Of a stretch of 64,000 nt of DNA, positions 14,912 to 34,947 are shown in pieces. Source of the stretch: an uncultured Bacilli bacterium. GTDB lineage: Bacteria > Bacillota_I > Bacilli_A > RF39 > UBA660. The notes beneath the pieces were generated by a model that was not told the DNA's origin, searched no databases, and worked only from the letters and a program-made list of their open reading frames with translations. How positions within the stretch are numbered: the first letter of the stretch is position 1; each line of letters begins with the position of its first letter. The stretch spans positions 13,882 through 77,881 of the forward strand of contig CANQQV010000007.1 in NCBI GenBank assembly GCA_947626095.1, in the 5' to 3' direction. The position numbers were made by a program, and so were the translations under genes.

Positions 14912-14912
14912 T

Positions 14913-14940: not shown

Positions 14941-14964
14941 CTTTATTTATACTATTTTTGTTAA

Positions 14965-15285
14965 TTAGCAATTTCCTGAATTCTTAACACAACTAGCACA
15001 TACATCATAGTCGCCACCTGCTGAATCTACTAAACTAAATACTAGTCCAACTAATGTTGGTACAAACCAAATAGCGATACCAGCAACAGCTCTCATAGCT
15101 AATTGTTTCATTGCTTTTTTAATTTCATCATCTTTAGAAGCAACAACTGCTTTACCTAAATCTATACAACCAAATATTATAATTAATAGTGGAATAACAA
15201 TTTTAAATACTCCTAATATTTTTCCTACAACAACCCAAATATCTTTTGTTTGAGCACAAAAATTAACAGCTGCTAATATATCCAT
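14965..15285 (-). CDS. VirB2/TrbC-like pilin-type mini-protein (paralogue 1), monocistronic
   Basis: About 106 aa from the ATG at 15285 (AAGGAG 9 nt upstream). Two TM helices with basic loop KAVVASKDDEIKKAMKQLAMR and a Cys-rich C-terminus (CASCVKNSGNC). It has its own promoter and terminator. Confidence 0.5.
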   Translation of the reverse strand: MDILAAVNFCAQTKDIWVVVGKILGVFKIVIPLLIIIFGCIDLGKAVVASKDDEIKKAMKQLAMRAVAGIAIWFVPTLVGLVFSLVDSAGGDYDVCASCVKNSGNC

Positions 15286-15313
15286 ATAAAACATCTCCTT
15301 CATTTCTAATATA

Positions 15314-15342
15314 ATTGTATTTAAATTTACAAAATATGTCAA
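15314..15342 (-). promoter_or_regulatory. Sigma-A type promoter TTGACA-17-TACAAT for VirB2-like paralogue 1
   Basis: Read on the minus strand: TTGACA tattttgtaaatttaaa TACAAT. It lies between the TadZ-like stop codon (15352) and the AAGGAG RBS. Confidence 0.6.
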
Positions 15343-15351
15343 GTTTTTCTT

Positions 15352-16465: not shown

Positions 16466-17062
16466 TCAACTAACATAATCTTCTGCTGTTATGCCTTCCC
16501 CTTCATCTTGAGGGTCATATATTTCATCAGAAGTTCCATCTACTTTTACTGATAAGAATTCCTCTAAAACAGGAACTTCAAATTTATAAAATAATCTAAC
16601 TTTATAATACACTGCCTTATATCTGCCTGTTTGAGTATTGGCATTATACTTTGCAAAACAATAATAATATTTTTTACTAGAATCAGCAGGTTCAAATTCA
16701 GAAGCAGGACCACTTCCACTACGAAGTTCAGAAACTCCATACCAATTACCTGAAATATCTCCTGCAGTATGAGGACAATAACCCATAGCGTCATAATTAT
16801 TTCCCATTAAATAAAGATTAATAGTTTCAATAGTATTAACATTTATCTTAATTGCTGAACCATTTATTAATGATGTACCATCATGAGTTCCTGGACTTAC
16901 AGATTTTGTAACTCCTTTATGCTTTTCAATAATCGTTAAAACTTCATTTTTTATTTTAAAAGACTTTGAGTAATTAATATTAATAATGATATAAGCTGAA
17001 AATAAAGCAATAAAAACTACTATTAAACCTAAAAGCCAAATATTTACAATTCCATTTTTCAT
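16466..17062 (-). CDS. TadE/TadF-like pseudopilin
   Basis: 198 aa. A short N-terminus then a hydrophobic helix (MKNGIVNIWLLGLIVVFIALFSAYII), followed by a Cys-containing globular domain. Paralogous in layout to the 17063-17608 product. Confidence 0.5.
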   Translation of the reverse strand: MKNGIVNIWLLGLIVVFIALFSAYIIININYSKSFKIKNEVLTIIEKHKGVTKSVSPGTHDGTSLINGSAIKINVNTIETINLYLMGNNYDAMGYCPHTAGDISGNWYGVSELRSGSGPASEFEPADSSKKYYYCFAKYNANTQTGRYKAVYYKVRLFYKFEVPVLEEFLSVKVDGTSDEIYDPQDEGEGITAEDYVS

Positions 17063-17608
17063 CTAACTACCACCATAACATCTATCATTGATTTCATCGA
17101 AATCATTTACTAAATAAATAATTGAAGTTTCTCCTGAAATATTTATTTTAAACATACTTCTTAAGATTGGCCAATCCAATCTAAAGAAAACAACCGCCCC
17201 ATAATACGCAGATTCAGGATGCCCTACTGGTCCAGTCGTATAAATAACTGGGTCTTCGTCACCAGTACTTGAACTACGAGACGTAATCATATACTTAGTA
17301 ATACAATAATTAGCATCACCAGACCATCTAGGTTGTGGTGTTATATCACTTAATTTAAAATGAGCCCAACAATTACCATCTTCAGGACATTTACCGACTG
17401 AAGAATAACCAATACCTTTTAAATATTCATTAATTTTAGTAATCGAATCATTATTAATTCCGTGTGCTCTTTCAATTGTAATTAATATTTCATCTTTAAT
17501 TTTATAACATCTTGAATAATTCGTTGAAACACTAACAAAAGTTGTAAATAACGCTAAAAAAGATATTACTAAAACAAAAATCCATGTTCCTCCTATAGCT
17601 TCTTTCAA
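17063..17608 (-). CDS. TadE/TadF-like pseudopilin (TTG start)
   Basis: 181 aa. MKEAIGGTWIFVLVISFLALFTTFV shares the MKEA-G leader with the two pilins. TTG start with AGGTG 6 nt upstream. Its stop abuts the next start (TAGATG). Confidence 0.5.
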   Translation of the reverse strand: MKEAIGGTWIFVLVISFLALFTTFVSVSTNYSRCYKIKDEILITIERAHGINNDSITKINEYLKGIGYSSVGKCPEDGNCWAHFKLSDITPQPRWSGDANYCITKYMITSRSSSTGDEDPVIYTTGPVGHPESAYYGAVVFFRLDWPILRSMFKINISGETSIIYLVNDFDEINDRCYGGS

Positions 17609-17617
17609 TGTTTACAC

Positions 17618-17854
17618 CTACCCTCTAAATGGGCACATAAAGACTTCGTCAGACCCATCATTTGGATTTTTACAATATGCCATTAAAGTATTTGGATCAT
17701 ATCCATTATCGCACATTGCATTAGCGCAAGTTGCTCTATCTTGCATACCATCTTTAATTATAGGCCAAATAAACATAAAGAAAAAAGCCGTAAGCAAAGC
17801 AACGGCTGAAACGACAATTACAGAACCAGTTAATTCACCTGTAGCTTCTTTCAT
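17618..17854 (-). CDS. Short Flp-like pilin (P2)
   Basis: 78 aa. MKEATGELTGSVIVVSAVALLTAFFFMFIW then a 45-aa head with 4 Cys. RBS GAGGTGA. Confidence 0.55.
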   Translation of the reverse strand: MKEATGELTGSVIVVSAVALLTAFFFMFIWPIIKDGMQDRATCANAMCDNGYDPNTLMAYCKNPNDGSDEVFMCPFRG

Positions 17855-17883
17855 TTCTAATCACCTCAATAATAATTCAAAAA

Positions 17884-18156
17884 CTAATTTGTTCCTGAGC
17901 AATGTTTTGAATAACTACGATTATTATATGTAGCATTACAAGTAAAGTTTTGGCAATTAACACTAGTACCATTCATAGCACCAGTAGTAATATTTCCATC
18001 ATAATTACCATCAGCATCAATATTTGAACATGCAGTTTGCATTGCAATATTCGCTTGAATTTGTGGCATAATAAATACTGTAAATAATGCTGCAATCGCC
18101 GCAATTGCAACAACTGTAATAACTGTCATGTTTAGTTCACCTGTAGCTTCTTTCAT
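17884..18156 (-). CDS. Short Flp-like pilin (P1), sequon-rich
   Basis: 90 aa. MKEATGELNMTVITVVAIAAIAALFTVFIM then a head with 4 Cys and six N-x-S/T sequons. First gene behind a strong promoter. RBS GAGAGG. Confidence 0.55.
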   Translation of the reverse strand: MKEATGELNMTVITVVAIAAIAALFTVFIMPQIQANIAMQTACSNIDADGNYDGNITTGAMNGTSVNCQNFTCNATYNNRSYSKHCSGTN

Positions 18157-21449: not shown

Positions 21450-22238
21450 TTATGAACCAATCATGTTCATAACCGCAATTAGTAGTAGAATCATAACACC
21501 GATACCAGTACATACTAACATACTCATTGTTTTATTTTCCATTTTATCCAAACGCTCTTTATATCGCGTCTCACGAGCTTTTTGTTGTAAGTTTGAAATA
21601 GTCTTTGAGAAAGTAATTAATTGTTCTTGTTTCCTCTCTTGACGACCTAAACTTAAACGATATAACAAACGCATCATACGCATTGAATCACGAACTGGAT
21701 ACATCTGCGCAAATTCCATATATGGTGTAACAGTTGCATCACCGGCATTAATCTTATTAATCATATCGATTAAACCTTCTCTAAATATCTCCGGTGCGTC
21801 ATTAATTGATTTACCTAAAGCAACTGGAACAGTATAGTGTTGAATTAAAATTTCTAGACCTTTTAAGTAATAAGGTAACATTGAATCTATTTGTAATAAG
21901 TGGGCTTTATAAAAACTCTTTAAATTCAAATAATCCAATTTAAACATTCCATACCCACCAACAACAGCTAAAACAACTTTAACAGCTGTTAAATTAGATA
22001 TCATAATAAATATCAATAATATTATAACTATTAAACCATTCTTTATTCTCTTTTGGAATAAAACATCAGAATCAAGACCTTCACCATATTTAGCTCTAAC
22101 TAAGAAATCATAATCTTCTTCTTTTAGCTTCATAAAGATATCTTGATTATCTTGAATAAATTTATTAGGTTTAATATAACCATTAACAGTTAAAACAATA
22201 AAAGCAACTAATCCAATAACAATAACTTCAAAATACAT
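21450..22238 (-). CDS. tadC: TadC-like platform protein (T2SSF domain)
   Basis: 262 aa. TM helices flank a helical cytoplasmic domain (LPYYLKGLEILIQHYTVPVALGKSI..) with a T2SSF-like pattern. Follows tadB with a 2-nt gap. Confidence 0.65.
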   Translation of the reverse strand: MYFEVIVIGLVAFIVLTVNGYIKPNKFIQDNQDIFMKLKEEDYDFLVRAKYGEGLDSDVLFQKRIKNGLIVIILLIFIMISNLTAVKVVLAVVGGYGMFKLDYLNLKSFYKAHLLQIDSMLPYYLKGLEILIQHYTVPVALGKSINDAPEIFREGLIDMINKINAGDATVTPYMEFAQMYPVRDSMRMMRLLYRLSLGRQERKQEQLITFSKTISNLQQKARETRYKERLDKMENKTMSMLVCTGIGVMILLLIAVMNMIGS

Positions 22239-22240
22239 AA

Positions 22241-23134
22241 CTACTCAACCCCCACATCTTCGTTATAATATTTTTCCCCTGTTACTAAGAAATAACAATT
22301 GATAATTATTATTGCATGTAATATTAATTGAACATACCAGTTTTCTAACATTGCTAAATATTCAGATCTACCAAATAATAGCTGCATAACTAAAACCAGT
22401 AAGAATAAAGCCATACCAAATGTTAAGAACTTTTTATGGAATGTTTGTCTATCCATTCTATCACGATAAACACCTTCAACCAAAGCATCTATATCCATTG
22501 ACATTAATTCTAGTGCTTCACCAGAATCTCTTGCACCTTCTTTAGTAATCTGCAAGAATAATTGGTGCATATTTTTAACCATATAATACGGATAAGCATT
22601 GTTAAAGAAGTCAATTGATTGATCAATCGTACCATTATCATAAGACATTTGAATCATTCTTTTAACATCCCTTAATACAGGATCTTGTAAAATACCAGAA
22701 TCTCTAACACCTTCTAAAGCTTTAACAAAACTCTGAGTTGTATTAAATTCCATAATAACGTTTGTCGTATAAACTTGAACTTGTTCAAATAAATATTCAC
22801 TATATAATCTTTGTGTCCTTAAATAATTTAAATAAGGAACAAAACATATCGCAATTATTGTATAAACAACTGTTACAGGAATACTATAGAAATATAAGAA
22901 AGTTATACCTGCAGCTGCTCCACCCATAAGAAGAACTTGCGTAGCATACTGCCTAGGTGTATATTCATATCCTAATTCTTTAGTTTTCTCTTTAACCTCA
23001 CGATAACTATAAGGCGCATATGTATTATAAACATTAGATACAGTATCAGCAAAAAATTTATAAACATTATCACCAGTATTAAAACGATATGCTAAAACGA
23101 AAACTGCTATAACTAACCATATAACTAATTCCAT
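22241..23134 (-). CDS. tadB: TadB-like platform protein (T2SSF domain)
   Basis: 297 aa. N-terminal TM, a paired TM, then a ~130-aa helical domain (FVKALEGVRDSGILQDPVLRDVKRMI..GEALELMSMDI) and C-terminal TMs. Directly downstream of the ATPase. Confidence 0.65.
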   Translation of the reverse strand: MELVIWLVIAVFVLAYRFNTGDNVYKFFADTVSNVYNTYAPYSYREVKEKTKELGYEYTPRQYATQVLLMGGAAAGITFLYFYSIPVTVVYTIIAICFVPYLNYLRTQRLYSEYLFEQVQVYTTNVIMEFNTTQSFVKALEGVRDSGILQDPVLRDVKRMIQMSYDNGTIDQSIDFFNNAYPYYMVKNMHQLFLQITKEGARDSGEALELMSMDIDALVEGVYRDRMDRQTFHKKFLTFGMALFLLVLVMQLLFGRSEYLAMLENWYVQLILHAIIIINCYFLVTGEKYYNEDVGVE

Positions 23135-23149: not shown

Positions 23150-24715
23150 TTATAAAACATCGCTAGTTGGTGTTGAAGCAACATTTTGTCCAACACTATT
23201 TGGCATCACAGCTGTCGGAAAAATATTTGGTTGAGGGCTTGGTGCTACACTCGTTGCTGGTGTAGCAGGTGCAGCTGGCGTAACAGGACTAGTTGTAACA
23301 GCCGAAACAGGAGCTGATACTGAAGCCTGAAATGGAACCACAGCAGCTGGTGCTACATTTTGCGTTTGAGGCACAGCTGGTGCTGGAACAGGTTGTGAAG
23401 ATGCAGCTACACTAGGCTGAGGCACAGCAGATACTGGCACAGTTGGGATAGGTTGCTCTTCTAAAACCTCTTGGCTGTTAACAACTTGAGAGTTATTAAC
23501 AGCAGGAGTAGTTCCACCATTTTGCGCTTCCCCATTCGTTGAATCACCCTCATTAAGAGCATCAATCAAAGTATTCTTAGTTTCCTTATTTGCTAAATTA
23601 TCATCTTTACTGTCTCTTAAATTAGATAAATCTTCCTTAGATTCAGCATCCCCTAAACCAAAAATATCATCATTTTCAAAATAAACATTACCAATAGCTA
23701 AATAATCAATTAGCTTCTTAGTAGGATTATGTAAAGTAACTTTACCATCCAATGTTTTAGAATATAAAATATTAGACTTTGGCTTATTAGTTTCGTCATC
23801 AACATAAAATTCACATATCTCCATAATTTCACGTTGGAAACGATCTAAAGCCTTAGAATAATAACCTTTAACATATATACCAATTTGAATATATCTATGA
23901 ATTGAAGATAGATATTGTTCAATATCTTGGCTACCTTCAAGTAACGCATACATACGCATTGGTATACTTGATGCCTTATCGGCATGAATTGTTGAAATAA
24001 TATGGTGTCCAGAAGAAATAGAGTTACGAACTGCCATAACTGCTTCAGCTGAACGAACCTCGGCAAGTAATATCCATATTGGGTTCTGTCTCATGCAGGC
24101 TACTAAGGCATCAGTATAAGATGCTATATTATTAGTCTTCATGGCCACAATATCACGATGAGGGAAAATTTTATCTAAGTGAAGTTCCAAAGTATCCTCA
24201 ATAGATATAATTTTTTCATCTTCTTTTGTATTACTAGCTAAATATTTAACAAGTTCTGTTTTACCAGAACCAGTTTCTCCTGCAATCATTATATTGCAAT
24301 GACCCCAAACACATTTTATTAAAAAATCATGCATTTGATCAGTAATATATTGTTCGTTAATTAATTTTTCTTTATTTAAACGAATCTTAGCAGGAGTTTT
24401 ACGTATCAAGCACGCGATTCCATTTGTAGCAATGGAATCGTGGACAAAGTTCATACGTAATTCAGCACTTTCAGAGTCAAGAAATGGATGAGCCATATTG
24501 AAAGTTCTACCCATAACATTTGCACATTGAAAGGCTAATTTTTCCATAAACGGATTATTTATATCAGGTCTTTCAACTTGATAAACACCTTTAGACAATG
24601 TCTTTAACCAAACTTGGCCACCATTACTATATGAAATATCGGTAATATCATCATCCTCTAAAAACTCAGATAATGGGCCAAAATCCATCTGGGAGAAAAC
24701 ATTCTTCTCATCCAT
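23150..24715 (-). CDS. tadA: TadA/CpaF-type secretion ATPase (T2SSE/VirB11 superfamily) with a Pro/Ala/Val-rich C-terminal tail
   Basis: 521 aa. Walker A IMIAGETGSGKTELVKYL, Walker B WILLAEVRSAEA, His box SGHHIISTIHA. The last ~140 aa are low-complexity P/A/V/S/T. RBS AGAGGGTG. Confidence 0.8.
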   Translation of the reverse strand: MDEKNVFSQMDFGPLSEFLEDDDITDISYSNGGQVWLKTLSKGVYQVERPDINNPFMEKLAFQCANVMGRTFNMAHPFLDSESAELRMNFVHDSIATNGIACLIRKTPAKIRLNKEKLINEQYITDQMHDFLIKCVWGHCNIMIAGETGSGKTELVKYLASNTKEDEKIISIEDTLELHLDKIFPHRDIVAMKTNNIASYTDALVACMRQNPIWILLAEVRSAEAVMAVRNSISSGHHIISTIHADKASSIPMRMYALLEGSQDIEQYLSSIHRYIQIGIYVKGYYSKALDRFQREIMEICEFYVDDETNKPKSNILYSKTLDGKVTLHNPTKKLIDYLAIGNVYFENDDIFGLGDAESKEDLSNLRDSKDDNLANKETKNTLIDALNEGDSTNGEAQNGGTTPAVNNSQVVNSQEVLEEQPIPTVPVSAVPQPSVAASSQPVPAPAVPQTQNVAPAAVVPFQASVSAPVSAVTTSPVTPAAPATPATSVAPSPQPNIFPTAVMPNSVGQNVASTPTSDVL

Positions 24716-24746: not shown

Positions 24747-25550
24747 TTAACACAATGTTAAATCAGTACACTCATCAGCAATAATGTGAGTTTGATTTAT
24801 AATAAGTGATCTTAATTCTTCATTAGATAATTTTGTTGCATTAGCACTAGTTGCATAAGTAGTATTACGTGCAATTGGTTCAATGACAATGCCCAATTTT
24901 TCTGCCTTCTTAAGTAGTAAGAATATTTCTTCAGGAACAGCAAAGAATAAATAGTCAGCATTACCAGGGTTATCTTTATCAGCAAAAACATTATTACCTT
25001 TTGCATCCTTAACCGCTAAAACTTCAATTGAAGCATATAATCTACCATATACTATCTTATTTTCATCTTCTTCAACAGTAGAAGATAAATATAAGTCTAT
25101 CTTATTTTCTGGCATTATTGAATTTGCCATAATAGTACTACTATTAACCTTTAATTGATAAACTGTATATCCATCTTGAATATCAGAGAACATTGAATCA
25201 GGCATATCCTCTTCATTCATTAACTGTTCATCATAGAAGAAACTATTTCTAGCTATCTTTCCATCATAAGCAACAACTTTACCAATAATAGCATCAGGTT
25301 GAGTTACAATATTATCCATATTTGCAATAACATCTTTTGGTAAATCAGCATACCCTATATCATCAGCTGTAATTTTCTTACGAGCAACTAAAGTATTTTT
25401 ACAAAAAGGAACTCTTGTAGGTTGAATAGATTGAGTTACTCTCCAACTATATCCTAAATATAAAACAACTAAACCAATTAACACACCTAATATTGTAATT
25501 GTATTTTTATTACTTAAAAACTTTTTAAAAGGTACAAGTAAATTTCCCAT
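24747..25550 (-). CDS. CpaB/RcpC-like pilus assembly protein
   Basis: 267 aa. N-terminal TM (ITILGVLIGLVVLYLGY) followed by a SAF-like segment (TLVARKKITADDIGYADLPKDV) and a beta-rich domain, positioned upstream of tadA. RBS AAGGAGGA. Confidence 0.5.
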   Translation of the reverse strand: MGNLLVPFKKFLSNKNTITILGVLIGLVVLYLGYSWRVTQSIQPTRVPFCKNTLVARKKITADDIGYADLPKDVIANMDNIVTQPDAIIGKVVAYDGKIARNSFFYDEQLMNEEDMPDSMFSDIQDGYTVYQLKVNSSTIMANSIMPENKIDLYLSSTVEEDENKIVYGRLYASIEVLAVKDAKGNNVFADKDNPGNADYLFFAVPEEIFLLLKKAEKLGIVIEPIARNTTYATSANATKLSNEELRSLIINQTHIIADECTDLTLC

Positions 25551-25573: not shown

Positions 25574-26083
25574 CTATGGATAATAATCACAATAACTATT
25601 ATTCATCTTATCAGATACACAATTTAAACCGTCATCATCACAGTCCAAATTTGCTGAATCAAATTCAACGATCAAATCTATTGAATTAACAACATCTAAA
25701 TCAGTCATAGCATGTTCTCCTGCCGTTTCCTCAGTATCACGACCAATTATAAAACCAGCAGTTGTTGTTGATATTTTGACACTTACTTTAGGAGGAGATT
25801 CATATAAATCATAAAATTGAATATTATAACTATCAGTTACTGAAACAGTTTCAGCGAATCTTCTTAGGAAGTTTTCAACGAAAACTTCCTTTAAGATTCT
25901 AACTTGTCCAGTTTGTGAATAATATCTATAATCAATTGCATCATACAATGCACTATTTGCTACTTCTTTCAATTGATAATAATCTTGAGTATTAGATGTC
26001 GTAGCATCATTTGTTAACATCATAACTGATGCTATAAAGATACCAAGAATTATAAACCAATAGCCCCAGTAGGATTCTTTCAT
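25574..26083 (-). CDS. TadE-like pseudopilin
   Basis: 169 aa. MKESYWGYWFIILGIFIASVMMLTNDA (short leader plus hydrophobic helix), with C-terminal Cys residues. RBS AAGGAG. Confidence 0.45.
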   Translation of the reverse strand: MKESYWGYWFIILGIFIASVMMLTNDATTSNTQDYYQLKEVANSALYDAIDYRYYSQTGQVRILKEVFVENFLRRFAETVSVTDSYNIQFYDLYESPPKVSVKISTTTAGFIIGRDTEETAGEHAMTDLDVVNSIDLIVEFDSANLDCDDDGLNCVSDKMNNSYCDYYP

Positions 26084-26099: not shown

Positions 26100-29000
26100 C
26101 TATTTAAATGCCAATCTATAATATTGTGTACTTTCAACAGGTTCCCATATGTTCTTAGCGGTTCCTGTTTCAATATAATCTATCCAACGACAGTTACCTG
26201 AAGCAATTTTGTTCTTCAATTCTTCCTTAGCAGAATCTGAATTAGAAGAAACTATTTCACAAACATTATTTTCACTTCTCATATTACTTAAATTATTTGT
26301 TCCAGCAGAAGCACCTGTTGAACTAAATAAGTCATTAAAGTTCTCTAAGAAATTACTTCCATAATGACCAAAGTTAGCAATGTAATTGTTCATATCATCT
26401 TCTTGATCACTAGTTGCAAACCAAGAACAACTTGAAGGATCATCACAAGAACCTAATGGTTGAATAGAAGCACGACCATAAATAGTCAAGTTATCGAAAT
26501 TAACTTCATAACCATATCTATCATTATAATCTCTTATAGCAGCTAAAGTTGTAGGTCTAAGTTCAAATGAATACTCTGGAGTAGTACCACCATCATTCAA
26601 ATAAACTTTTTCACCTTGTTCTTCAATTTCCTTCAAGGCAACTTCACCTTTATTAGTAATTAACTTATTACCGCCATAATAGAATACACCCCTATTAGTC
26701 CAGTTATTTCCAAGTTCTCTATCTGTAGGACTATTCAAGTCAGATAACGCTACAGTAGTTGTATATAGTCCAAGTGTACCTCTAGCTTTATCATACTCAG
26801 TTTCCCTATTGAAATCATAATCAAATCCAACAGAACTTGCAAACTCTTGCGCAGTTGTCTCAGTTTCAGAAGTATAAGTAACAATTGGATCACCACAACA
26901 TAAGCAAATATCTTCAACTACCTCATAGAAACACGTTCGTTTATTTTGTGGAATCAATGCCTCTGCATCACCCATGACTCGACCGAGCTGTCCATCACTA
27001 TAACTACCAATTTGTGTAAACTGATAAGTATATCTATATAAGTTTCGTGCCGTAGTCATACTTACTGGGAAGATATTTAAATTACCTTCAATATCTCTAT
27101 CATCACCAGTCATCGTACCACTGAATACCGACCAACCTTTTTTAGCCTTATCGGAGCGATCAGTATAACTAGGTCCGCCTTCACGTTTAGCAGCATTATC
27201 CCATGCATCCTCTAAATCATCACCATGTTCACGCGTATCATTTGGTCCAGTATACCAAATACCTTTATTTCGATAGAAACTACTATTAGTAATCGAAGCT
27301 TTAATATAATGAGCTTTAAAATAAGAAACATTAAAGCTATAACATTTTCCACCTTCCCATCGTGGAACACGCTCAGAAATTTGGAAAGTATAAGCATCAC
27401 CATTCTTATTATATCCAGTTCCAGTACCAGCAATTTCTCGACCAATAGAACATAAAGTTATAAGTTTAGTTACTACATGTTCTGAACCAGCATTATTTTT
27501 GATAGAAAGTGGCTTATTATCTTTATAAAATTCAGTACCTTCACCATACTTTTTGATTAAATCATCATCCATCCAAGGTCCATCTTCAGGGTCATAATAA
27601 GCAAATTCAAGATAGTTTCTTGCCAGTTTAACTGGTGTATCAGGTGTTTCTTCACAAGCTTCTTCACCAACCGCCAGTTCACAAGGATCTGTAAATCCAA
27701 CATAAGCATCTACCATCTTATTTGTACTCTTATTAAATCCTTCAGTAATACCCTCTTTTAAGAAGAATTTATCATTTAACTGATCATATTGAATTAAAAT
27801 ATTATCATCTTGCAATATAGTCATATAAAGTTTTTCATCATAATCATAAGAAACAAAAGGTTCAAACATTGTTAAGATTTGCATGAATGTCTTTGTACCA
27901 GTAAATGATGATTTATCAGTACTAGCTGGATTATTCGCTTTACCATTAGCATCATCGGTAGCATTATTTAATTCAAAGTGTTGACAATTCCAGAATTGTT
28001 CATACTTATTATTAATTATGTTCGCCGCACTAGTCATCTTCTGATAAGCAGGGCTCATTATAGCTTCACTTGCTGCTTTCATTTTATCAGAAAGATTCGT
28101 AAATGCAGTTTGCTTATTGGTATCAGTATTACCAAGATAACATCCATCAGCAGAAGTTGTTGGATTTTCCCCAGCTGTTTGACCATCATAACCAGCAGAA
28201 GTAGGTTTTGATGTAAATGTACAAGCAGTTCCAGATACCTTATCTTGCGAATAATCAGGTTTAGTAGGCGTTTTAACTGGATCGGAAGTAACATTATCAG
28301 TTACAGTGTAATTATTGTATGATCCTTGTCTTTCATCTCCATCACCTTGGAACTTCATATTCAATGATAATTCATAATGGCCATATCGAGTTGTATCGTT
28401 ATTATCAGATCTTATATTTTGAAGCGTACATTCCCAGTCACTATCTTCAGATTCATCTTCCTCTGTATCTTCATCATCTTCAACTTCATTATAAGTCCAT
28501 TGTAAACATCCTGAATCAGGAACAAACACTAATTTATCAGATGTATAATCTTGATCATCTATATCCGTATAAGCATGCGAAGCATTACTATATGTATTAT
28601 AGTTATTAACCATTATTTTAGACTGTTCAACCAAATCTCTCATAAATAAGTCATAATCAAGATACGTAGTATAACATGTACGACCACCTTGAATAAATAA
28701 ATTATTATTAGCATTTTGGAAGAATTTACCAGCTAAAACAGCATTTTTACCAACGAAGTTACCAAATGCTTCCATTGTAATTACCCAGTCTTCACGACAT
28801 GATACTTGACAATATTCATTACCTTGATAAGATGCAACCATTATCGAATTACCACGATCATCTTCTTTTTGATATACTGAAAGATCTCTCTCTGCATCTA
28901 CATCAGCTGCATAATTATCTTTAACATTAACAACACAAGTACCTATTGCTTCCGTGTACTTCTCCTCTGTACCAGTATAATAAGCACCTTCCTTTACCTC

Positions 29001-31952
29001 ATATAAATCAGGTGAGCCAGCATAATCAGCTCTATAGCTACATACACTAGACATTGTTGAAACAGAGCAATCTCCATTACAAACGTTTTTCATAACATAT
29101 TGATATGAAACCTCGTCTAAAACATTACTACAGCATCCAGATGCTTTAAACAATGATTTATTGAATGATGATGGGCAATGATCTTCATCAGTACATTGTG
29201 TATAATCTAAACTTTCAAGTTTAGAACATATTGAAGGTCCACCATCTATATTAAAGTAAATAAATGTTGAATCACTATTTAAATCAAAGACAAGCATTCT
29301 TTGCTTAGAAGCACTACCAGCATATGGATTTCCTATACGTATACTTGAATAGTCAATACCACCTTCATACTTAATTTCTAAAGCATATTGTTCTTCTTCT
29401 TGTCTATTTTTAGGTAATGTAACAGCTTTAGCATCAGTAACTTCTATTTTTACTTCATAATCATATACTTCTTGTAATGGATCGGTTGTAGATTTATCGG
29501 TATTTTTTTCCATCTTAACTAAAGTACCTTTAACTCCTTGAACAACACCAGTATCATCGTCAGGATGTGGAAGATATTGATAATTAGAAGTATTACCCAT
29601 AGTTAATCGTGTATTGACAGGCAATGTCATAGTTCCTTTGTAAACAATCGTATAACTATTTCCATCATCACCAAAAGTTATATCTTTACTATCAATTGTT
29701 CTTTGGAAGGCACCACCTTCTTCAAATTTATAATTTTTGTATTTAATAAACATTTCAATTAAATAAGTACGAGCCTGTGGACTTTCAGTAACACCAAATG
29801 CATCAACAGCTGAAGTTATAGCGCTTTTAAATTCACTATTGTCTTCAAGCATATTGCCATTAGCATCTTGGTAAGCAGGATTTTCATAAATTTCCTTTAG
29901 TTTTTGGGCTAATTCTTCATAAGATAGATAGTGTTCATAATAAGCTTGATCACTATATTCTGTAACACCACTATATCCATTTATTAAAACAACAGTACGA
30001 ATAGCAACGTGTGCTGCTAATCTAACTGGATCAGTAACAGTGTCAAAATCAGCCTTACTAGAATGCTTATTAATATAGTCAATAATTACACCAATCATTT
30101 TACCTAAGTCAGAATCTTGATTAACATGTTCAGTTATATCATATTTATCGTCAGAAGGCCCCACACGACCAGGATCCATACATAAAGCAAAATACTTAAT
30201 GCTTTCATTATCAACACATCTAGCAATATAGTTATTACTATTTAAGTCATCATTAATTCCAGTTCTAACAGTATGACCTTCTGAATCTGTTTGTGCTTTT
30301 ATTTTAACTACATCACACATTTTATGTTCAAAGTCATTCAAGGCATAAGAGTTGTTTTCACCAGAAACGATATTTGCATCAACATCAATTACAAATGAAC
30401 CGTCACCAGCTTCAGAATTAACTCCAATATCTCGTACTTCAAATTTATAAACAAGATTTCTGGTTTCACCATCTTCTTGAACTGTAACATTAACATCAAT
30501 ATATTCACCAGAACCAGTAGGTGAATTACCAGCAACAAAACATTGGTTATTTATGAAACTAGCATCTAAGTTAGTAGCCGTTCCACTCTTAGCACAACCA
30601 ACCATTCCTGGAACAGATAAGTAAGTATGCTGACCAACATAAACTGATTTATATCTATCTCTTTCTCTTACAGTTCTTTTATATTGTGCTGCATAATACG
30701 CACCTTCAGTCACCGAGACTGGTCTACCTGGTTCAAGAAGCTCTCCAGAACCATTTTTTAACCAACCAAGGAATTCAGTATCTTGACCAAGTACAGTACT
30801 ATTGTTTACAACATTTGGTAAAGTAAATGTACTTCCTGTACCTCTACAGAAATATTCACCATTATCAGTTTGCGTACATTGACTTGTATCAGATAATTCA
30901 AAAGGTGTATTAATATTTGTTAATCTAACACCATCAGAATATACATAACAAGCTACATATATACCACTATCAGGTGCAACAGAAGCGCCAGGAGCAACAA
31001 CCGTTTTTCCACCTTCTGCACATTCACCTACATGCTGATAAGCAGGATCGTTTCTATTTCTTCCATCAGGAACCTTTGTCCAACCTCTAAATTCTATAGG
31101 TAAAGGTGAAGAATTCGGAGAACAGCTAGGTAACGTAACATTTCCACTTGTTACACTTACATAATAGTTGTGAGTACTACCAAACGATACAGCTCGCCAA
31201 TTCGAATCAAAACTACAAGTACCATAACCACCTGGATAAGCATTAACACCACCTGTATAACTTATTTGAAAATCTAATGTTACTGATTTTTCATCAATAC
31301 CATCAGCAGTAAATACAGCTTGAGTTTGAGCCGTAAAATTTTGGCCTTGATTTAATGCTGCATCTGTAGGTGTGACAACACAAACAGTATCACCAGGGCA
31401 CCCACTCCAATCAACATATCTTTCACTATTAGAATCTTTAGTTAAAGACTTAATTCTTACATTTCTTACATTAAATCTAACTGCTATTAAATTAGCAATA
31501 TTTTGACTAGGTTTATTGACCACTTCACCATTTATACTACCATTAAGTGGTACAGTTATTCTAGTAGGATCATTTGGTTCATAATGATAATGATAAGTAC
31601 GATGACTACCTTCATGTTCATAAGCAGGATTAGTTCTTTCACCACTCCAAGAACATGTTACATAATCATCAATAACAACTCCAGAAGGCTCAATAAGATT
31701 CCTAATTACAAAAGCATAATACGATTCTCCACCAACCGTATAATTTTCTCTTTGTATTACTAATGCCTTCAATCGTCCATCCGGAACTAAATCTGGATCT
31801 GGAACACATTCAAGGTCTATATATCTTTCAGAGCTTAATTTTACACCACTGCCATTAAATGAAAAATCATCTGTGGCCATAGCTGGACCAATAGCTACTA
31901 CAAAAGAAATTATTATAAATAGGATATATTTTCTAATATTACTAATCTTCAT
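26100..31952 (-). CDS. Giant secreted Cys-rich protein of unknown function (candidate pilus-associated adhesin or substrate)
   Basis: 1950 aa. Signal peptide ILFIIISFVVAIGPAMA/TDD. About 44 Cys by my count. No LPXTG, no C-terminal TM, and no obvious internal repeats or catalytic motifs. The start shares a base with the upstream stop (TAATG). Confidence 0.7.
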   Translation of the reverse strand: MKISNIRKYILFIIISFVVAIGPAMATDDFSFNGSGVKLSSERYIDLECVPDPDLVPDGRLKALVIQRENYTVGGESYYAFVIRNLIEPSGVVIDDYVTCSWSGERTNPAYEHEGSHRTYHYHYEPNDPTRITVPLNGSINGEVVNKPSQNIANLIAVRFNVRNVRIKSLTKDSNSERYVDWSGCPGDTVCVVTPTDAALNQGQNFTAQTQAVFTADGIDEKSVTLDFQISYTGGVNAYPGGYGTCSFDSNWRAVSFGSTHNYYVSVTSGNVTLPSCSPNSSPLPIEFRGWTKVPDGRNRNDPAYQHVGECAEGGKTVVAPGASVAPDSGIYVACYVYSDGVRLTNINTPFELSDTSQCTQTDNGEYFCRGTGSTFTLPNVVNNSTVLGQDTEFLGWLKNGSGELLEPGRPVSVTEGAYYAAQYKRTVRERDRYKSVYVGQHTYLSVPGMVGCAKSGTATNLDASFINNQCFVAGNSPTGSGEYIDVNVTVQEDGETRNLVYKFEVRDIGVNSEAGDGSFVIDVDANIVSGENNSYALNDFEHKMCDVVKIKAQTDSEGHTVRTGINDDLNSNNYIARCVDNESIKYFALCMDPGRVGPSDDKYDITEHVNQDSDLGKMIGVIIDYINKHSSKADFDTVTDPVRLAAHVAIRTVVLINGYSGVTEYSDQAYYEHYLSYEELAQKLKEIYENPAYQDANGNMLEDNSEFKSAITSAVDAFGVTESPQARTYLIEMFIKYKNYKFEEGGAFQRTIDSKDITFGDDGNSYTIVYKGTMTLPVNTRLTMGNTSNYQYLPHPDDDTGVVQGVKGTLVKMEKNTDKSTTDPLQEVYDYEVKIEVTDAKAVTLPKNRQEEEQYALEIKYEGGIDYSSIRIGNPYAGSASKQRMLVFDLNSDSTFIYFNIDGGPSICSKLESLDYTQCTDEDHCPSSFNKSLFKASGCCSNVLDEVSYQYVMKNVCNGDCSVSTMSSVCSYRADYAGSPDLYEVKEGAYYTGTEEKYTEAIGTCVVNVKDNYAADVDAERDLSVYQKEDDRGNSIMVASYQGNEYCQVSCREDWVITMEAFGNFVGKNAVLAGKFFQNANNNLFIQGGRTCYTTYLDYDLFMRDLVEQSKIMVNNYNTYSNASHAYTDIDDQDYTSDKLVFVPDSGCLQWTYNEVEDDEDTEEDESEDSDWECTLQNIRSDNNDTTRYGHYELSLNMKFQGDGDERQGSYNNYTVTDNVTSDPVKTPTKPDYSQDKVSGTACTFTSKPTSAGYDGQTAGENPTTSADGCYLGNTDTNKQTAFTNLSDKMKAASEAIMSPAYQKMTSAANIINNKYEQFWNCQHFELNNATDDANGKANNPASTDKSSFTGTKTFMQILTMFEPFVSYDYDEKLYMTILQDDNILIQYDQLNDKFFLKEGITEGFNKSTNKMVDAYVGFTDPCELAVGEEACEETPDTPVKLARNYLEFAYYDPEDGPWMDDDLIKKYGEGTEFYKDNKPLSIKNNAGSEHVVTKLITLCSIGREIAGTGTGYNKNGDAYTFQISERVPRWEGGKCYSFNVSYFKAHYIKASITNSSFYRNKGIWYTGPNDTREHGDDLEDAWDNAAKREGGPSYTDRSDKAKKGWSVFSGTMTGDDRDIEGNLNIFPVSMTTARNLYRYTYQFTQIGSYSDGQLGRVMGDAEALIPQNKRTCFYEVVEDICLCCGDPIVTYTSETETTAQEFASSVGFDYDFNRETEYDKARGTLGLYTTTVALSDLNSPTDRELGNNWTNRGVFYYGGNKLITNKGEVALKEIEEQGEKVYLNDGGTTPEYSFELRPTTLAAIRDYNDRYGYEVNFDNLTIYGRASIQPLGSCDDPSSCSWFATSDQEDDMNNYIANFGHYGSNFLENFNDLFSSTGASAGTNNLSNMRSENNVCEIVSSNSDSAKEELKNKIASGNCRWIDYIETGTAKNIWEPVESTQYYRLAFK

Positions 31953-32698
31953 TATAAAACACTCTTCTTTCTTTTAACTATTATCACAGTTATAACAACC
32001 CCGATTGCTACTATAATACCAACAATCAAAAATCTATATTTAGATATACTACTAACTACTTTATTAACGTTGTTCTCGGTTTTATTTTTGTTAGCTTCAT
32101 CAATATTTCCATTAGCTAGTTGCTCTTTATAATCATTTATCCTATCATATACCGTTGCACTATCTATTGAATAACTTGTATATTGCGTACATAGATAATA
32201 ATCAGGAACATCCGAACATATATCCAATTCAGAATATATATTAAATTTAGGAACTGTTAACTTCGTTGTCCTTAACGTCCTACCAGCACATGCTCCATAC
32301 AATGAATATATTTCAAACTGATAATCTACATTAGCATTTAAAGCCTCTTGCTTTAATGAAATTATTCCATCTTGATTAACATGTGTAGGGCCAAATACTT
32401 GAGGGTTTCCGCTTATTCCTTTACCCTGAGGAATAACTCTAACAGCCATCCTATCATTGATATTAAATATTTGGAGATATACATAATGTTTTTTCAAACT
32501 TGCGGCTCCAATTTCTGGATCCTCATCAACAGTAACTACTTCATCTCCCGTTACGTAAGTTACCTTAACGTTCGCTGCTTCACTTCTTAATTCACTTAGA
32601 AGTGTACTAGCACAAACGCCATCTTCCTCTGCTTGTACTTTAACTGTGACAAATAAAGCACATGCAGTCATTAATACAATTAAAAATTTTTTCATCAT
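31952..32698 (-). CDS. Secreted/membrane-anchored protein, first gene of the supercluster
   Basis: 248 aa. Signal peptide (..VKVQA/EEDG), Cys-containing ectodomain, C-terminal TM FLIVGIIVAIGVVITVIIV plus KRKK. Translationally coupled to the giant ORF. Confidence 0.6.
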   Translation of the reverse strand: MMKKFLIVLMTACALFVTVKVQAEEDGVCASTLLSELRSEAANVKVTYVTGDEVVTVDEDPEIGAASLKKHYVYLQIFNINDRMAVRVIPQGKGISGNPQVFGPTHVNQDGIISLKQEALNANVDYQFEIYSLYGACAGRTLRTTKLTVPKFNIYSELDICSDVPDYYLCTQYTSYSIDSATVYDRINDYKEQLANGNIDEANKNKTENNVNKVVSSISKYRFLIVGIIVAIGVVITVIIVKRKKSVL

Positions 32699-32807
32699 AA
32701 AGCACCAACCTTATTTTCTAAATATAATTTTACCATTAACAATTTAAAATAACAATATTAAATTGAAGAATAATGATGATTATGATATATTATTAATGGT
32801 GATTTTA

Positions 32808-33260
32808 ATGAAGAAAAAAGTTTTAAAAATAGCAGGATTCCTTATAGTAATAGGAGCTATTATAGGTATTCTATATGCTAGTATTGTTTTAAAAGGTCAA
32901 GAAAATGATTTAGATAAACATTTAGTTGAATTAACCTTCAGTGAAGTTCAAGAAAAAATTAATAATAAGGAATCATTTATTCTTTTATTTTCCAAGACCG
33001 ATTGCTCACATTGTGCAGCATTCAAGCCTCCATTTAAACAGGTTTTAGCTAAATATGATATAACTGCCTATGAATTAAAAGTTGATTTACTATCAAAAGA
33101 TGAGAAAAAAGAATTATCAACTATTGCTAACTTTTCTGGTACTCCTACTACAATCTTTATTGTTGATGGCGAAGAAAAAAGTACTTCAACTCGTTTAATT
33201 GGCGAATCAAACGAAGAAAAGATAGAATCAAGATTAAGAGCATTAGGATACATTAAATAA
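32808..33260 (+). CDS. Membrane-anchored thioredoxin-fold protein (CxxC)
   Basis: About 150 aa from the ATG at 32808. N-terminal TM (IAGFLIVIGAIIGILYASIVL), thioredoxin-like motif KTDCSHCAAFKP and a GTPTT cis-Pro loop. Divergent from the supercluster. Confidence 0.7.
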   Translation: MKKKVLKIAGFLIVIGAIIGILYASIVLKGQENDLDKHLVELTFSEVQEKINNKESFILLFSKTDCSHCAAFKPPFKQVLAKYDITAYELKVDLLSKDEKKELSTIANFSGTPTTIFIVDGEEKSTSTRLIGESNEEKIESRLRALGYIK

Positions 33261-33280
33261 AAGAATAAAAGGTGATTAAT

Positions 33281-33979
33281 ATGAAAAAGTTACAAATTAA
33301 TCCAAAAGAACTACTAAAAAGTATAGGCATCTTATGTCTATACTTTTTATTGCAGTTTATTTTGACAATTATCTACTATTTACTTACTGAATTAAAGATT
33401 TTACCTTTTTCCGAAAGTATTGGTAACTTCTTTATTTACATCTTCCTTGCTTCAATTATCTCTCTTACATATATCAAAACTTTAATTAAAGATTTTAAAG
33501 ACTTTAAAAAGAATTATAAAACCATTTTAAAAATATCATTTAATTATTGGTTAAAAGGCCTATTTATTTCATATATTGGTAGCTTATTAATTATGATGTT
33601 TAAACTCGAAGAAGTAAATAATCAAACAGCTGTCATCTCTATTCTTAAAGAAAACTTCTTCTTAACTTCTTTTATGACTATCATTCTTGCTCCTTTAACT
33701 GAAGAATTATTCTTTAGAAGAGGTTTAAGAAAATTTACCGAAAACAAACATCTTTATGCCTTTACTTCTGGTTTACTATTCGGTGGTATTCATATAATTT
33801 CTTCTATTAATGGTTTTAGTGACCTACCAATGTTACTTTATTTAATTCCTTATAGTTCATTAGGTGTAGCCTTTGGTTATGCTTATTATAAAACCGATAA
33901 CATCTATGGCTCAATGACGATACATGCTATCCATAATGCTATAAGTATTATTCTTATGATCTTAGGAGGTAATTTATGA
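33281..33979 (+). CDS. CPBP-family intramembrane glutamic endopeptidase (CAAX protease/Abi)
   Basis: Motifs LTEELFFRRGL, FGGIHIISS and MTIHAIHNAI in a polytopic membrane protein. Confidence 0.8.
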   Translation: MKKLQINPKELLKSIGILCLYFLLQFILTIIYYLLTELKILPFSESIGNFFIYIFLASIISLTYIKTLIKDFKDFKKNYKTILKISFNYWLKGLFISYIGSLLIMMFKLEEVNNQTAVISILKENFFLTSFMTIILAPLTEELFFRRGLRKFTENKHLYAFTSGLLFGGIHIISSINGFSDLPMLLYLIPYSSLGVAFGYAYYKTDNIYGSMTIHAIHNAISIILMILGGNL

Positions 33980-34947
33980 GTGAAGATAAAGATAAACGTA
34001 TGAGTAGATACGAAAAAAAAGATCAAGATAAAATCAAAGAAATTGAAACAACGAAAAAGGAAGAACAAGAAACACCTGAAGAAGAACATCACAAACTACT
34101 CGATTCTAAACCCAAAAAAGTATTCTTTGCTATTATCTTATTCCTTATTATTATATGCATTTATGCTTCTACTTTTGGTGTTTCAATAATTGATGTTAAA
34201 GAATCTAAAGTCGAATCTAATCTATTACCTGATTCATTTCATGGTCTAAAGATTGTTCATTTTTCTGATTTACACTACGGTACTAGTATTAATAAAAAAC
34301 AATTAGATCGTGTTATCAAAAAAATAAACCAAATAAATCCTGATATTATCTTCTTTACTGGTGATCTAGTTGATAAAAATATCGTTATTACTGATACTAT
34401 TAAACAAGAAATAATAACTTCCTTAAACCAATTAAATAAAGACACTTATAAATACGCTATATATGGTAATGAAGACGATAATACCTATAAAGAAATAATT
34501 GAATCAACTAATTTTACGCTTTTAGATAACGAATCAACCTTATTATATTATAAAGATATAACACCAATAATGATAACTGGCTTTAATTCTAATACTAAAC
34601 CCGATTATACAATCTTAACTAATAATATTGATGACGTTGATACCTCATCATTATATAAAGTAGTCTTAATCCACGAACCAGATACCATCGATAACTTCAC
34701 CGATTATAATCCTAACCTTGTCTTATCTGGTCATTCCTTAGGTGGTTTAATCAATCTACCATTAATCAAATCATTATTTCTACCAGCTAATGGAAAAAAA
34801 TATTATAAAGACTATTATAATATCAACGACATTGATTTCTATATATCTAATGGCTTAGGAACAACTGGTATTAAAGCTCGTTTAAATAATCATCCATCTA
34901 TTAATTTCTATCGCTTATATAAAACAGAAGAAGTACTAAATTCATAG
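33976..34947 (+). CDS. Membrane-anchored metallophosphoesterase (calcineurin-like, YkuE-like)
   Basis: 323 aa. N-terminal TM, then VHFSDLHYG, FFTGDLVDK, IYGNEDDN and LSGHSLGG. ATGA overlap with the CPBP gene. Confidence 0.75.
   Translation: MSEDKDKRMSRYEKKDQDKIKEIETTKKEEQETPEEEHHKLLDSKPKKVFFAIILFLIIICIYASTFGVSIIDVKESKVESNLLPDSFHGLKIVHFSDLHYGTSINKKQLDRVIKKINQINPDIIFFTGDLVDKNIVITDTIKQEIITSLNQLNKDTYKYAIYGNEDDNTYKEIIESTNFTLLDNESTLLYYKDITPIMITGFNSNTKPDYTILTNNIDDVDTSSLYKVVLIHEPDTIDNFTDYNPNLVLSGHSLGGLINLPLIKSLFLPANGKKYYKDYYNINDIDFYISNGLGTTGIKARLNNHPSINFYRLYKTEEVLNS

Follow-up and report, generated by a model that had tools for sequence, protein, structure and literature searches.

A family of giant cysteine-rich secreted proteins, candidate adhesins, encoded in a chromosomal pilus-like/type IV secretion locus of uncultured gut Bacilli

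Large secreted adhesins tied to a filament or to a type IV secretion system (T4SS) are already known as a general kind of protein. TraN is a cysteine-rich surface mating adhesin of ~600 amino acids (aa), located in the diderm outer membrane and encoded in a T4SS locus together with the thioredoxin-fold protein TrbB/TraF. RF39-type Bacilli are common, uncultured and genome-reduced members of animal and human gut communities. Here we analyse a stretch of 64,000 nucleotides (the window) from one such bacterium (GTDB lineage Bacillota_I; Bacilli_A; RF39; UBA660; assembly GCA_947626095.1, contig CANQQV010000007.1, positions 13,882 to 77,881 of the forward strand), and within it a single uninterrupted open reading frame (ORF) on the minus strand (26100-31952) that encodes a protein of 1950 aa, hereafter the giant. 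Our favoured reading, to which we give roughly even odds (about 0.5), is that the giant serves as the variable adhesin, or target-recognition subunit, of a chromosomal pilus-like/T4SS apparatus of RF39-type gut Bacilli.

The nearest published counterpart is an uncharacterised operon comprising CpaF, PilC/GspF, DUF5411 and an 'InlB-like' protein, which Miller et al. 2022 (PMC9523054) predicted for Roseburia, Ruminococcus and Eubacterium. Like the locus described here, it combines a secretion ATPase, a polytopic membrane protein, DUF5411 and a large protein with internalin-B-type (Flg_new) repeats. Unlike the present case, it stems from Clostridia and was given neither a function nor a family definition nor a link to a T4SS, whereas the window version is ~700 aa longer, belongs to RF39-type Bacilli and is joined to a full T4SS block. 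In the literature on RF39 together with T4SS or pili, and on Tad together with VirB4 in Firmicutes, we found no description of this locus.

The giant family and its gene linkage

When 1.84 billion cluster representatives were searched exhaustively with a HMMER profile of the giant's C-terminal 1071 residues, 182 of them matched at E ≤ 1e-3, including 102 at E ≤ 1e-30; most are 1750-2550 aa in length. None of the family representatives checked carries a name. The orphan status that a preliminary description, made from the sequence alone, had assigned to the giant was also suggested by a word-indexed search of 5.8 billion proteins, which returned only 5-7 relatives (6-8 hits); it was overturned by the exhaustive profile search. 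The family comprises two groups. Giants of 1750-2550 aa, which terminate in ...[FY]R[LM][AS][FY]K-COOH, share their full length with the window giant, and a short subfamily of 900-1500 aa, which terminates in ...G[PS][SA][WM]K-COOH, has no more than two C-terminal cores in common with it (window residues ~1000-1200 and ~1600-1790). A genome scan located relatives in metagenome-assembled genomes labelled 'uncultured Bacilli' from rabbit, mouse, chicken and other guts, as well as in Candidatus Coprovivens, which corresponds to GTDB UBA11963 in the order RF39, family CAG-1000 (PMC8035907). The window sequence itself is present in rabbit-gut metagenomes.

Fifteen independent loci were read: the window, L001, L002/3, L004-6, L007, L009-L020 and L021. 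As far as the contigs reach, all 15 present the same gene order, namely a 240-320-aa partner, the giant, DUF5411, a CpaB-like protein, a secretion ATPase, and membrane proteins of 297 and 262 aa. Where the contigs continue, small pilin-like genes follow, then two pseudopilin-like genes, a 361-aa gene, two T4SS_pilin-like genes, VirB6-like, VirB4, a SpoIID/NlpC hydrolase, a lipoprotein and VirD4. The DUF5411 gene lies directly 3' of each family member with a readable 3' flank, and the partner gene lies 5' of the giant wherever the 5' flank is on the contig, except for a second giant copy in L014. All readable homologues sit in this same pilus-like/T4SS operon and not mostly outside Tad/T4SS contexts, which by the preliminary description's own criterion would have refuted its reading. 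Membership in the family and strict linkage to these genes are plain from the searches and the loci.

The cluster (~2.8-35 kb) is chromosomal. Its neighbours are bacA/rmuC/VTT at one end and cotZ, PTS-IIB, ftsW and tyrS at the opposite end; clpC, leuS, infB and nusA lie farther out, and the flanks on the cotZ/PTS-IIB/tyrS side recur across other species and genera. Searches of PLSDB plasmids (megablast, tblastn), INPHARED phages (tblastn) and IMG/VR (pattern scan) returned no relatives, and a plasmid or phage origin of the giant was rejected on these grounds. No relaxase or integrase domain was seen among the ORFs scanned over 1-45 kb; a relaxase could lie elsewhere in the genome.

Architecture and variation of the giant

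From its N-terminus to its C-terminus the giant can be divided as follows, with window coordinates and strand.

31875..31952 (minus): signal peptide, residues 1-26, cleaved after A-M-A and overlapping the sole hydrophobic segment (3-30); the N-terminus is likewise hydrophobic in 105 of 109 long relatives
31170..31874 (minus): N-terminal region of beta-sandwiches, residues 27-261, more variable than any other part; all-beta in the AlphaFold2 (AF2) model, immunoglobulin (Ig)/cadherin matches in Foldseek, 29-47% identity to close relatives
30657..31169 (minus): two divergent repeats resembling Flg_new (Listeria-Bacteroides repeat), residues ~262-432, with LP...F.GW; predicted with hhalign
30321..30656 (minus): another predicted beta-sandwich, residues ~433-544; modelled as strands by AF2
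29253..30320 (minus): probable module resembling a thioester domain (TED), residues ~545-900, helical bundle plus beta-sandwich; C591 in ALCMDPGR.GP and helix RLAAHVAIR at 644-652
28533..29252 (minus): cysteine-rich conserved core 1, residues ~901-1140, 15 Cys, with GCC, CQVSC.EDW and RTCYTTY; kept in the giants and in the 900-1500-aa subfamily (profile ~1000-1200)
28053..28532 (minus): variable acidic linker, residues ~1141-1300; lowest conservation within the C-terminal half
26778..28052 (minus): conserved core 2, residues ~1301-1725, with CQHF, NSSFYRNKG.WY, FPVS.TT.RNLY.YTY and CFYEV.E..CLCCGD; common to the short subfamily (profile ~1600-1790)
26103..26777 (minus): C-terminal module of ~225 aa, residues ~1726-1950, ending ...YYRLAFK-COOH, the proposed docking domain; family-wide ending and stand-alone occurrence

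Much of what had been noted beforehand about the reading frame holds on closer inspection. The cleavable signal peptide of the single ORF is confirmed, its A-M-A/T signal-peptidase site falling between A26 and T27, and hydrophobicity reveals one segment only (residues 3-30), with no C-terminal anchor or further transmembrane segment. Together with a motif scan in which no LPXTG-type motif (LP.[TSA][GAN]) occurs in the giant, whose last residues are ...YYRLAFK, this agrees with the stated lack of a sortase motif and of an anchor. The number of cysteines, put at about 44, is exactly 44 (2.26%, against 1.04% in the window genes outside the cluster), and the three quoted strings are found at residues 1683-1689 (CLCCGDP), 939-944 (GCCSNV) and 958-963 (CNGDCS). 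The described translational coupling (TAATG) to an anchored 248-aa protein was likewise recovered: the ATG of the giant shares one base with the TAA of the upstream ORF, which has a signal peptide and a C-terminal transmembrane helix, and no terminator-like site separates partner, giant and next gene.

Other statements of the preliminary description required correction. It listed no HExxH, and HEGSH at residues 113-117 is literally such a motif; since this stretch is poorly conserved and relatives do not keep the motif, the match is attributed to chance, and a metalloprotease site was dropped as a candidate. It also listed no tandem repeats, which is right for the DNA of the gene and wrong for the protein, in which two diverged copies occur at residues ~270-340 and ~374-428. 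The giant as a whole matches nothing in Pfam (E ≤ 1), NCBIfam or PHROGs, and sequence and profile searches of the PDB with the family (6-sequence, 32-sequence, short-subfamily and mid-region profiles) yielded noise only.

The C-terminal half defines the family. A terminus of the form [ASPVG][FYWML]K is found in 128 of the 155 representatives, with Lys last in all 128; most of the remaining 27 look truncated, being short or having profile coverage that stops early, and two carry short extensions past the motif. The final module also exists apart from the rest of the giant. In the 416-aa protein P0104 (L021, 49-1299), a lipoprotein signal peptide and an unrelated N-terminus of ~200 aa are followed by only the last ~215 aa of the giant family, ending in KYFRLAFK; its gene lies directly upstream of a DUF5411 gene, on a 2.4-kb contig that ends before the upstream flank. 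P0108 (415 aa) has a similar build. Judged from these sequences, the C-terminal domain is modular. An AF2 model of the C-terminal half built from a 6-sequence alignment was unusable, with a predicted local distance difference test (pLDDT) of 38, and its best Foldseek hit (E 0.12) is meaningless. An enzymatic or channel role is possible for these ~1000 aa, since they have neither a usable model nor any match.

In the 32-sequence alignment, 32 of the 44 cysteines of the giant are at least 90% conserved at a mean column identity of 24%, which takes the enrichment beyond chance, and the cysteine content across the family is 1.6-4.2%. Given the conserved cysteines and a neighbouring extracytoplasmic thioredoxin, extensive disulfides are the natural reading, and the giant is probably disulfide-bonded.

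The AF2 model of residues 28-900 (873 aa, mean pLDDT 68) supports, at moderate confidence, a string of beta-sandwiches up to ~590, a strand with C591, a helical bundle at ~615-740 and a beta-sandwich up to ~900; pLDDT reaches 80-94 in this last block of strand, bundle and sandwich. Foldseek with the whole 873-aa model returned generic Ig/cadherin arrays only, at a template-modelling score of ~0.1. The two repeat copies align to each other in hhalign with a probability of 95.7% (E 1e-8). Their resemblance to Flg_new (PF09479) runs through the relative P0123, as the window giant itself scores no Pfam match: a hidden Markov model of the second window repeat matches P0123 at 164-221 (E 2e-5 in a 168-sequence set), overlapping the Pfam Flg_new match at 138-207 (E 4e-8).

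Residues ~545-900 probably form a TED-like module. C591 is invariant in both subfamilies (32-, 28- and 26-sequence alignments) within the motif Y.ALC[LM]DPGR.GP....Y, which reads FALCMDP in the window, and it fits the reactive-cysteine motif [YFL]C[LIVM][DENQ] of TED (PF08341) and TED_2 (PF20610). Pfam TED matches the relative P0151 at this motif with 21.8 bits against a cutoff of 22. When 26 mid-region pieces were scanned against Pfam, TED and TED_2 were the sole families matching more than one member, two each, with best E values of 4e-4 and 1e-3; no member reaches the gathering threshold of TED or TED_2, and the window giant has no match at E ≤ 1. The AF2 model predicts a Cys-bearing strand leading to a helical bundle and a beta-sandwich; Foldseek matches of the whole model are dominated by Ig arrays. 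The position of the thioester Gln in TQxA[IV]W corresponds to H648 of the window giant (RLAAHVAIR). Gln is kept there in P0006, P0012, P0036, P0119, P0123, P0137, P0142 and P0144, with T-Q-x-A-I retained in P0119 (T-Q-I-A-I-R) and P0137, and other relatives have N, S, D or E. With His standing in for Gln, a thioester is probably not formed in the window giant.

No other protein of the neighbourhood is as poorly conserved as the giant. In comparison species whose flanks are ~80% identical at the nucleotide level, protein identity to the window is 96% for the TadB/C-like proteins, 95% for the 361-aa protein, 94% for TyrS, 85-88% for DUF5411, 63-69% for the partner and 51-55% for the giant. The giant falls into four or five allele lineages that are ~55% identical to each other. 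Among close relatives its N-terminus is 29-47% and its C-terminus 62-82% identical; divergence peaks at the N-terminus and in the linker and is minimal in residues 1000-1100 and 1600-1900, and distant relatives retain only the two C-terminal cores.

The variation is seen most clearly when L004 is compared with L007. Nucleotide identity is 94-100% over tadA and cpaB and 77-91% (mean ~86%) over partner and giant, with a sharp break at the giant/DUF5411 junction. By the Nei-Gojobori method, the giant has a nonsynonymous divergence (dN) of 0.098 and a synonymous divergence (dS) of 0.48 (dN/dS 0.20), compared with a dS of 0.15 for the CpaB-like gene and of 0 for the first 288 codons of tadA; the lowest dN within the giant gene, 0.039, falls in core 2 (residues 1501-1650). 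A dN/dS of ~0.2 with elevated dS indicates allele replacement by recombination, and positive selection in situ was dropped as the source of the variability for the same reason. On this sequence evidence, partner and giant form a cassette that is swapped by recombination among divergent alleles, each under purifying selection. Copy number varies as well. L019 (3743-18204) carries tandem partner-giant pairs (320 + 2128 aa and 304 + 2039 aa) followed by a single DUF5411 gene.

The surrounding apparatus

The genes around the giant, listed from its immediate neighbours outwards, are these.

31952..32698 (minus): 248-aa partner with signal peptide, ectodomain of ~190 aa, C-terminal transmembrane helix and basic tail; from the TAATG overlap and its sequence
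25574..26083 (minus): DUF5411 protein, 169 aa, MKESYWGYW plus a hydrophobic helix; Pfam E 2e-51, N-terminus resembling that of the 181-aa ORF
24747..25550 (minus): CpaB/RcpC-like protein, 267 aa; Pfam RcpC 21.5 bits (cutoff 28.8), TIGR03177 35.3 bits (cutoff 71)
23150..24715 (minus): secretion ATPase (tadA) of the VirB11/TadA/TrbB superfamily, 521 aa; Pfam T2SSE E 3e-25
21450..23134 (minus): polytopic membrane proteins of 297 and 262 aa where TadB/TadC would be expected; assigned only from location and length
16466..18156 (minus): two small pilin-like ORFs (17884-18156 and 17618-17854, leader MKEATGEL) and two pseudopilin-like ORFs (181 and 198 aa); by sequence, with no family match
2842..16437 (minus): T4SS block of a 361-aa protein, two T4SS_pilin-like proteins, VirB6-like (945 aa), proteins of 112 and 197 aa, VirB4-like (594 aa), SpoIID/NlpC (826 aa), a 258-aa lipoprotein and VirD4 (908 aa); by family matches
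32763..34947 (plus): divergent trio of a membrane-anchored thioredoxin (CSHC, likely start 32796), an Rce1-like CPBP protease and a metallophosphoesterase; by domain matches

The Tad label that these neighbours had been given is weaker than assumed. In NCBIfam the ATPase matches VirB11 (2e-31), the TadA-family conjugal-transfer-associated ATPase (8e-30) and TrbB (3e-26), all far below the cutoffs, and its assignment is ambiguous; the CpaB-like protein stays below threshold; and the 297- and 262-aa proteins are unsupported as a TadB/TadC pair, with no T2SSF match and no detectable paralogy. The window contains no peptidase A24 or prepilin peptidase motif. The gene that follows the giant, described beforehand as a TadE-like pseudopilin, proved to be Pfam DUF5411 and not a recognised TadE, but it does have a pilin-like leader. 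Five ORFs start with a short leader MKE(A/S)..G and continue into a hydrophobic helix, namely the two pilin-like ones of ~80-90 aa, those of 181 and 198 aa, and DUF5411, in the manner of a pilin set; the MKEATG/EL of the small ones differs from the Flp motif G/xxxxEY. In the pilin-like and pseudopilin-like proteins (14490-18156 and 25574-26083, both minus), the extracytoplasmic portions are also rich in cysteine (2-4%), with four Cys per small pilin-like ORF, so that the whole apparatus, and not the giant alone, may need disulfides in an anaerobe.

The T4SS block is identified by a VirD4 that matches T4SS-DNA_transf (E 7e-57), a VirB4-like protein that matches TraG P-loop/AAA_10, and a hydrolase with SpoIID and NlpC/P60 domains. 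Further matches are weak, linking the VirB6-like protein to ICE_Mbov_0396_TM and a pilin to T4SS_pilin; the VirB6-like and pilin-like proteins thereby weakly match families from integrative and conjugative elements (ICEs) of Mollicutes (Mbov_0396, MMCAP2_0566). The gene order of the block is repeated in L001, L002, L004, L013 and L014. VirD4 carries a C-terminal extension of ~400 aa with no domain match. VirB4 is 90% identical to its L014 copy, whereas the giant is only 26% identical.

The trio holds its position in L001, L002/3, L007, L010, L012, L015-17, L019 and L020 and is absent from the L018 neighbourhood. Orthologues of the thioredoxin show PedC-like matches and a weak TraF match. The Rce1-like CPBP gene, of the CAAX-protease family, lies at 33272-33979 (plus) between those for the thioredoxin and the metallophosphoesterase. 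It is conceivable that this protease processes the C-terminal RLAFK of the giant; the idea was dropped, the gene being missing near L018.

Between the 262-aa gene and the pilin-like genes lies a 1038-aa ORF (18263-21379, minus), with an N-terminal FAD amine-oxidase domain (E 7e-16), an unmatched C-terminus of ~540 aa and no signal peptide. L011 has the same insert (76% identity); at this place L001, L002, L004 and L013 have nothing, L014 has its second giant, and L012 has two membrane proteins of ~800 aa. As its contents differ by locus, we regard this position as a variable cargo slot.

Several genes farther out also deserve mention. A CotZ-like spore-coat protein (34956-35396, minus), with 17 Cys among 146 residues (11.6%), is syntenic beside the cluster in many loci. 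The CotZ-like, SpoIID-domain and FtsW/SpoVE genes are unexpected for RF39-type bacteria, which to our knowledge are not known to sporulate. A 656-aa protein (39763-41733, minus) has two Cadherin-like beta-sandwich domains (E 2e-26) and is syntenic past tyrS in L001, L002 and L007; L020 encodes a 1388-aa relative of it that also carries Flg_new, making this a further surface protein of the region. A 284-aa protein (49736-50590, minus) that joins a LeuRS editing (CP1) fragment to a NUDIX domain is encoded directly 5' of a full-length leuS (47301-49730). Nearly all genes of the window are on the minus strand, its GC content is 24-36%, and its GC skew is strongly negative throughout (-0.12 to -0.49 per 2-kb bin).

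Proposed role, alternatives and known systems

If the giant is the target-recognition subunit of this apparatus, it would be exported by Sec and folded outside the cell with many disulfides, probably aided by the adjacent membrane-anchored thioredoxin. The conserved C-terminal half, notably the last ~215 residues to RLAFK-COOH, would dock it onto conserved machine parts. The pseudopilin-like DUF5411 protein encoded directly downstream would be the prime candidate for this contact, since it is always the next gene and is conserved across the recombination break; docking to pilins or to the partner may be envisaged as well. The 248-aa membrane-anchored partner could act as a tether or chaperone, likely an allele-specific one, because its sequence varies together with that of the giant and the two genes are translationally coupled and duplicated as a pair. 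The variable N-terminal half, with its beta-sandwich stalk, Flg_new-like repeats and TED-like module, would then project outwards and bind a ligand on a host or bacterial surface. The giant could sit either at the filament tip or on the cell surface. Among the roles proposed in the preliminary description, an adhesin or receptor-binding protein fits the beta-sandwiches, the repeats, the TED-like module, the variability and the linkage.

Several observations weigh against the adhesin reading. The neighbours are weakly Tad-like, with an ATPase that scores equally as VirB11 and TadA, no T2SSF match and no prepilin peptidase in the window. The C-terminal ~1000 aa, modelled at a pLDDT of 38, match no known sequence or fold, and the TED call comes from near-threshold matches in relatives, with no PDB profile match and with the catalytic Gln absent from the window giant. 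The second giant copy of L014 has no partner and lies between the 262-aa gene and the pilin-like genes. Finally, an RNA-seq search found no run carrying the giant gene.

A sub-variant of this reading, which differs in location, has an appreciable though minor share of the probability. Here the giant would serve the T4SS as an adhesin for mating pairs or target cells, staying on the cell surface outside any filament, with the 248-aa partner holding it at the membrane. Its functional analogues would be PrgB of enterococcal plasmids, TraN of F-like plasmids and the CDS14 lipoprotein of mycoplasma ICEs. The coupling, co-variation and co-duplication of giant and anchored partner suit this view, as do the T4SS genes present in every long locus, the resemblance of the VirB6-like and pilin-like proteins to Mollicutes ICE proteins and, by analogy, the weak TraF-like matches of the thioredoxin orthologues, which may recall the pairing of a Cys-rich TraN with TrbB/TraF. 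The universally adjacent gene, however, is the pseudopilin-like DUF5411 and not a T4SS component; the mini version P0104, on a contig that leaves its upstream flank uncovered, is itself a lipoprotein beside DUF5411; and the second L014 paralogue does without a partner.

Somewhat less probable again is that the giant forms a structural part of an envelope-spanning machine, with its C-terminal half in the wall-crossing conduit or base of the T4SS or filament and its N-terminal domains as a spacer. It would then be a functional analogue of VirB9/VirB10 or RcpA, which monoderms lack. That the conserved, family-defining part is the C-terminal half is what such a role would lead one to expect, and the gene is strictly linked to machine genes whose core is so highly conserved (96% for the TadB/C-like proteins, 90% for VirB4 even against L014) that the apparatus looks indispensable; the giant is also large and presumably stabilised by disulfides. 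Core parts, on the other hand, do not usually evolve faster than all other genes of their locus or recombine as this one does, and they fit poorly with adhesin-type N-terminal domains and with a copy number that ranges from the tandem pairs of L019 and the second copy of L014 to the 416-aa mini version of L021.

That the giant is a secreted cargo, effector or toxin, as the preliminary description also entertained, is improbable. It is indeed large, secreted, anchorless and encoded in a secretion locus, but a Sec signal peptide is atypical of T4SS substrates, and a variable N-terminus with a conserved C-terminus is the reverse of what polymorphic toxins display, a polarity for which the toxin candidate was dropped. 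Signatures of toxins, enzymes or immunity proteins are absent in Pfam, NCBIfam and PHROGs (the PADLOC library was not searched), and the next gene encodes a conserved pseudopilin-like protein and not a variable immunity protein. We hold it very improbable that the giant is a receptor-binding protein or cargo derived from a phage or mobile element and unrelated to the apparatus, since its hypervariability and recombination, which would suit such an origin, are set against the lack of relatives in IMG/VR, INPHARED and PLSDB, the housekeeping neighbours (tyrS, ftsW, PTS-IIB, cotZ), which stay the same from species to species and in different genera, and a cluster free of integrase and relaxase in domain scans.

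What is new here is the giant family itself, its C-terminal docking-type module with an invariant terminal Lys, its strict pairing with DUF5411, the recombining cassette of partner and giant, and a chromosomal hybrid apparatus in RF39-type bacteria with no relaxase seen in the cluster. A conserved machine combined with one fast-recombining giant is a plausible key to how RF39-type bacteria attach to hosts or other bacteria and exchange material with them. The apparent orphan becomes a family that can be studied, with at least 180 clusters, a domain map, a C-terminal signature and a genomic signature (DUF5411 downstream, the partner mostly upstream), and its C-terminal ~1000 aa are a good target for structure prediction with a deeper alignment. 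A candidate role is also offered for DUF5411 and the operon of Miller et al. 2022 (PMC9523054). A broader proposal, tentative and less likely than not, is that a previously undescribed C-terminal docking domain of ~215 aa, with the invariant end [AS][FWY]K-COOH, couples interchangeable passengers to the DUF5411 pseudopilin of an undescribed, chromosomally fixed hybrid that joins a type IV filament to a Mollicutes-like T4SS and has no relaxase. The smallest of these passengers would be a lipoprotein domain of 200 aa and the largest a hypervariable, disulfide-stapled adhesin of 1700 aa; the apparatus, which is highly conserved among the genome-reduced RF39-type gut assemblies studied here, would mediate both attachment to other cells and exchange with them, and partner and giant would be its recombining specificity determinant.

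The 900-1500-aa subfamily, which includes P0123 with Pfam Flg_new and P0160 in the order partner, giant, DUF5411, CpaB and ATPase, is probably the 'InlB-like' protein of Miller et al., a correspondence drawn from its description and not from a comparison with the Roseburia sequence. Compared with conjugative elements (ICEs or plasmids), the cluster differs in having no relaxase or integrase in the 1-45 kb scans, fixed housekeeping flanks and no plasmid match. TadG-type (vWA) proteins of Tad loci differ in that the giant has no vWA or TadE match and begins with a cleavable Sec signal. LPXTG adhesins of the PrgB type are similarly large and encoded beside a Gram-positive T4SS, but the giant lacks an LPXTG motif and a hydrophobic C-terminus, shares no domains with them, and is chromosomal and not plasmid-borne, with no relaxase in the cluster. 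The pairing of TraN with TrbB/TraF may find an analogue in a Cys-rich giant with a neighbouring thioredoxin whose orthologues weakly match TraF, although TraN has no sequence similarity to the giant. Adhesins with TED and thioester-isopeptide-ester architectures (Cpa, SfbI; PF08341, PF20610) have counterparts in the invariant [YF].ALC[LM]DP, in a helix equivalent to TQxA[IV]W and in the predicted beta plus helical-bundle arrangement; they differ in that the giant has His for the thioester Gln, no LPXTG motif and no PDB sequence match, and that the family scores below Pfam gathering. Since each testable defining feature of the PilY1/PilC, PrgB and TraN families is lacking, the giant belongs to none of them. 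It has no match to PF05567 or to the PilY1/PilC beta-propeller (Pfam and NCBIfam, giant plus 28 relatives), its filament system is not type IVa, and the sole pointer to a place at a pilus tip by way of minor pilins is its adjacency to the pseudopilin-like DUF5411. As a working analogy, PilY1/PilC of type IVa pili nevertheless offers the same plan: a large, Sec-exported non-pilin whose gene lies among those for minor pilins, and whose variable N-terminal part binds the ligand while a conserved C-terminal part couples it to the minor pilins.

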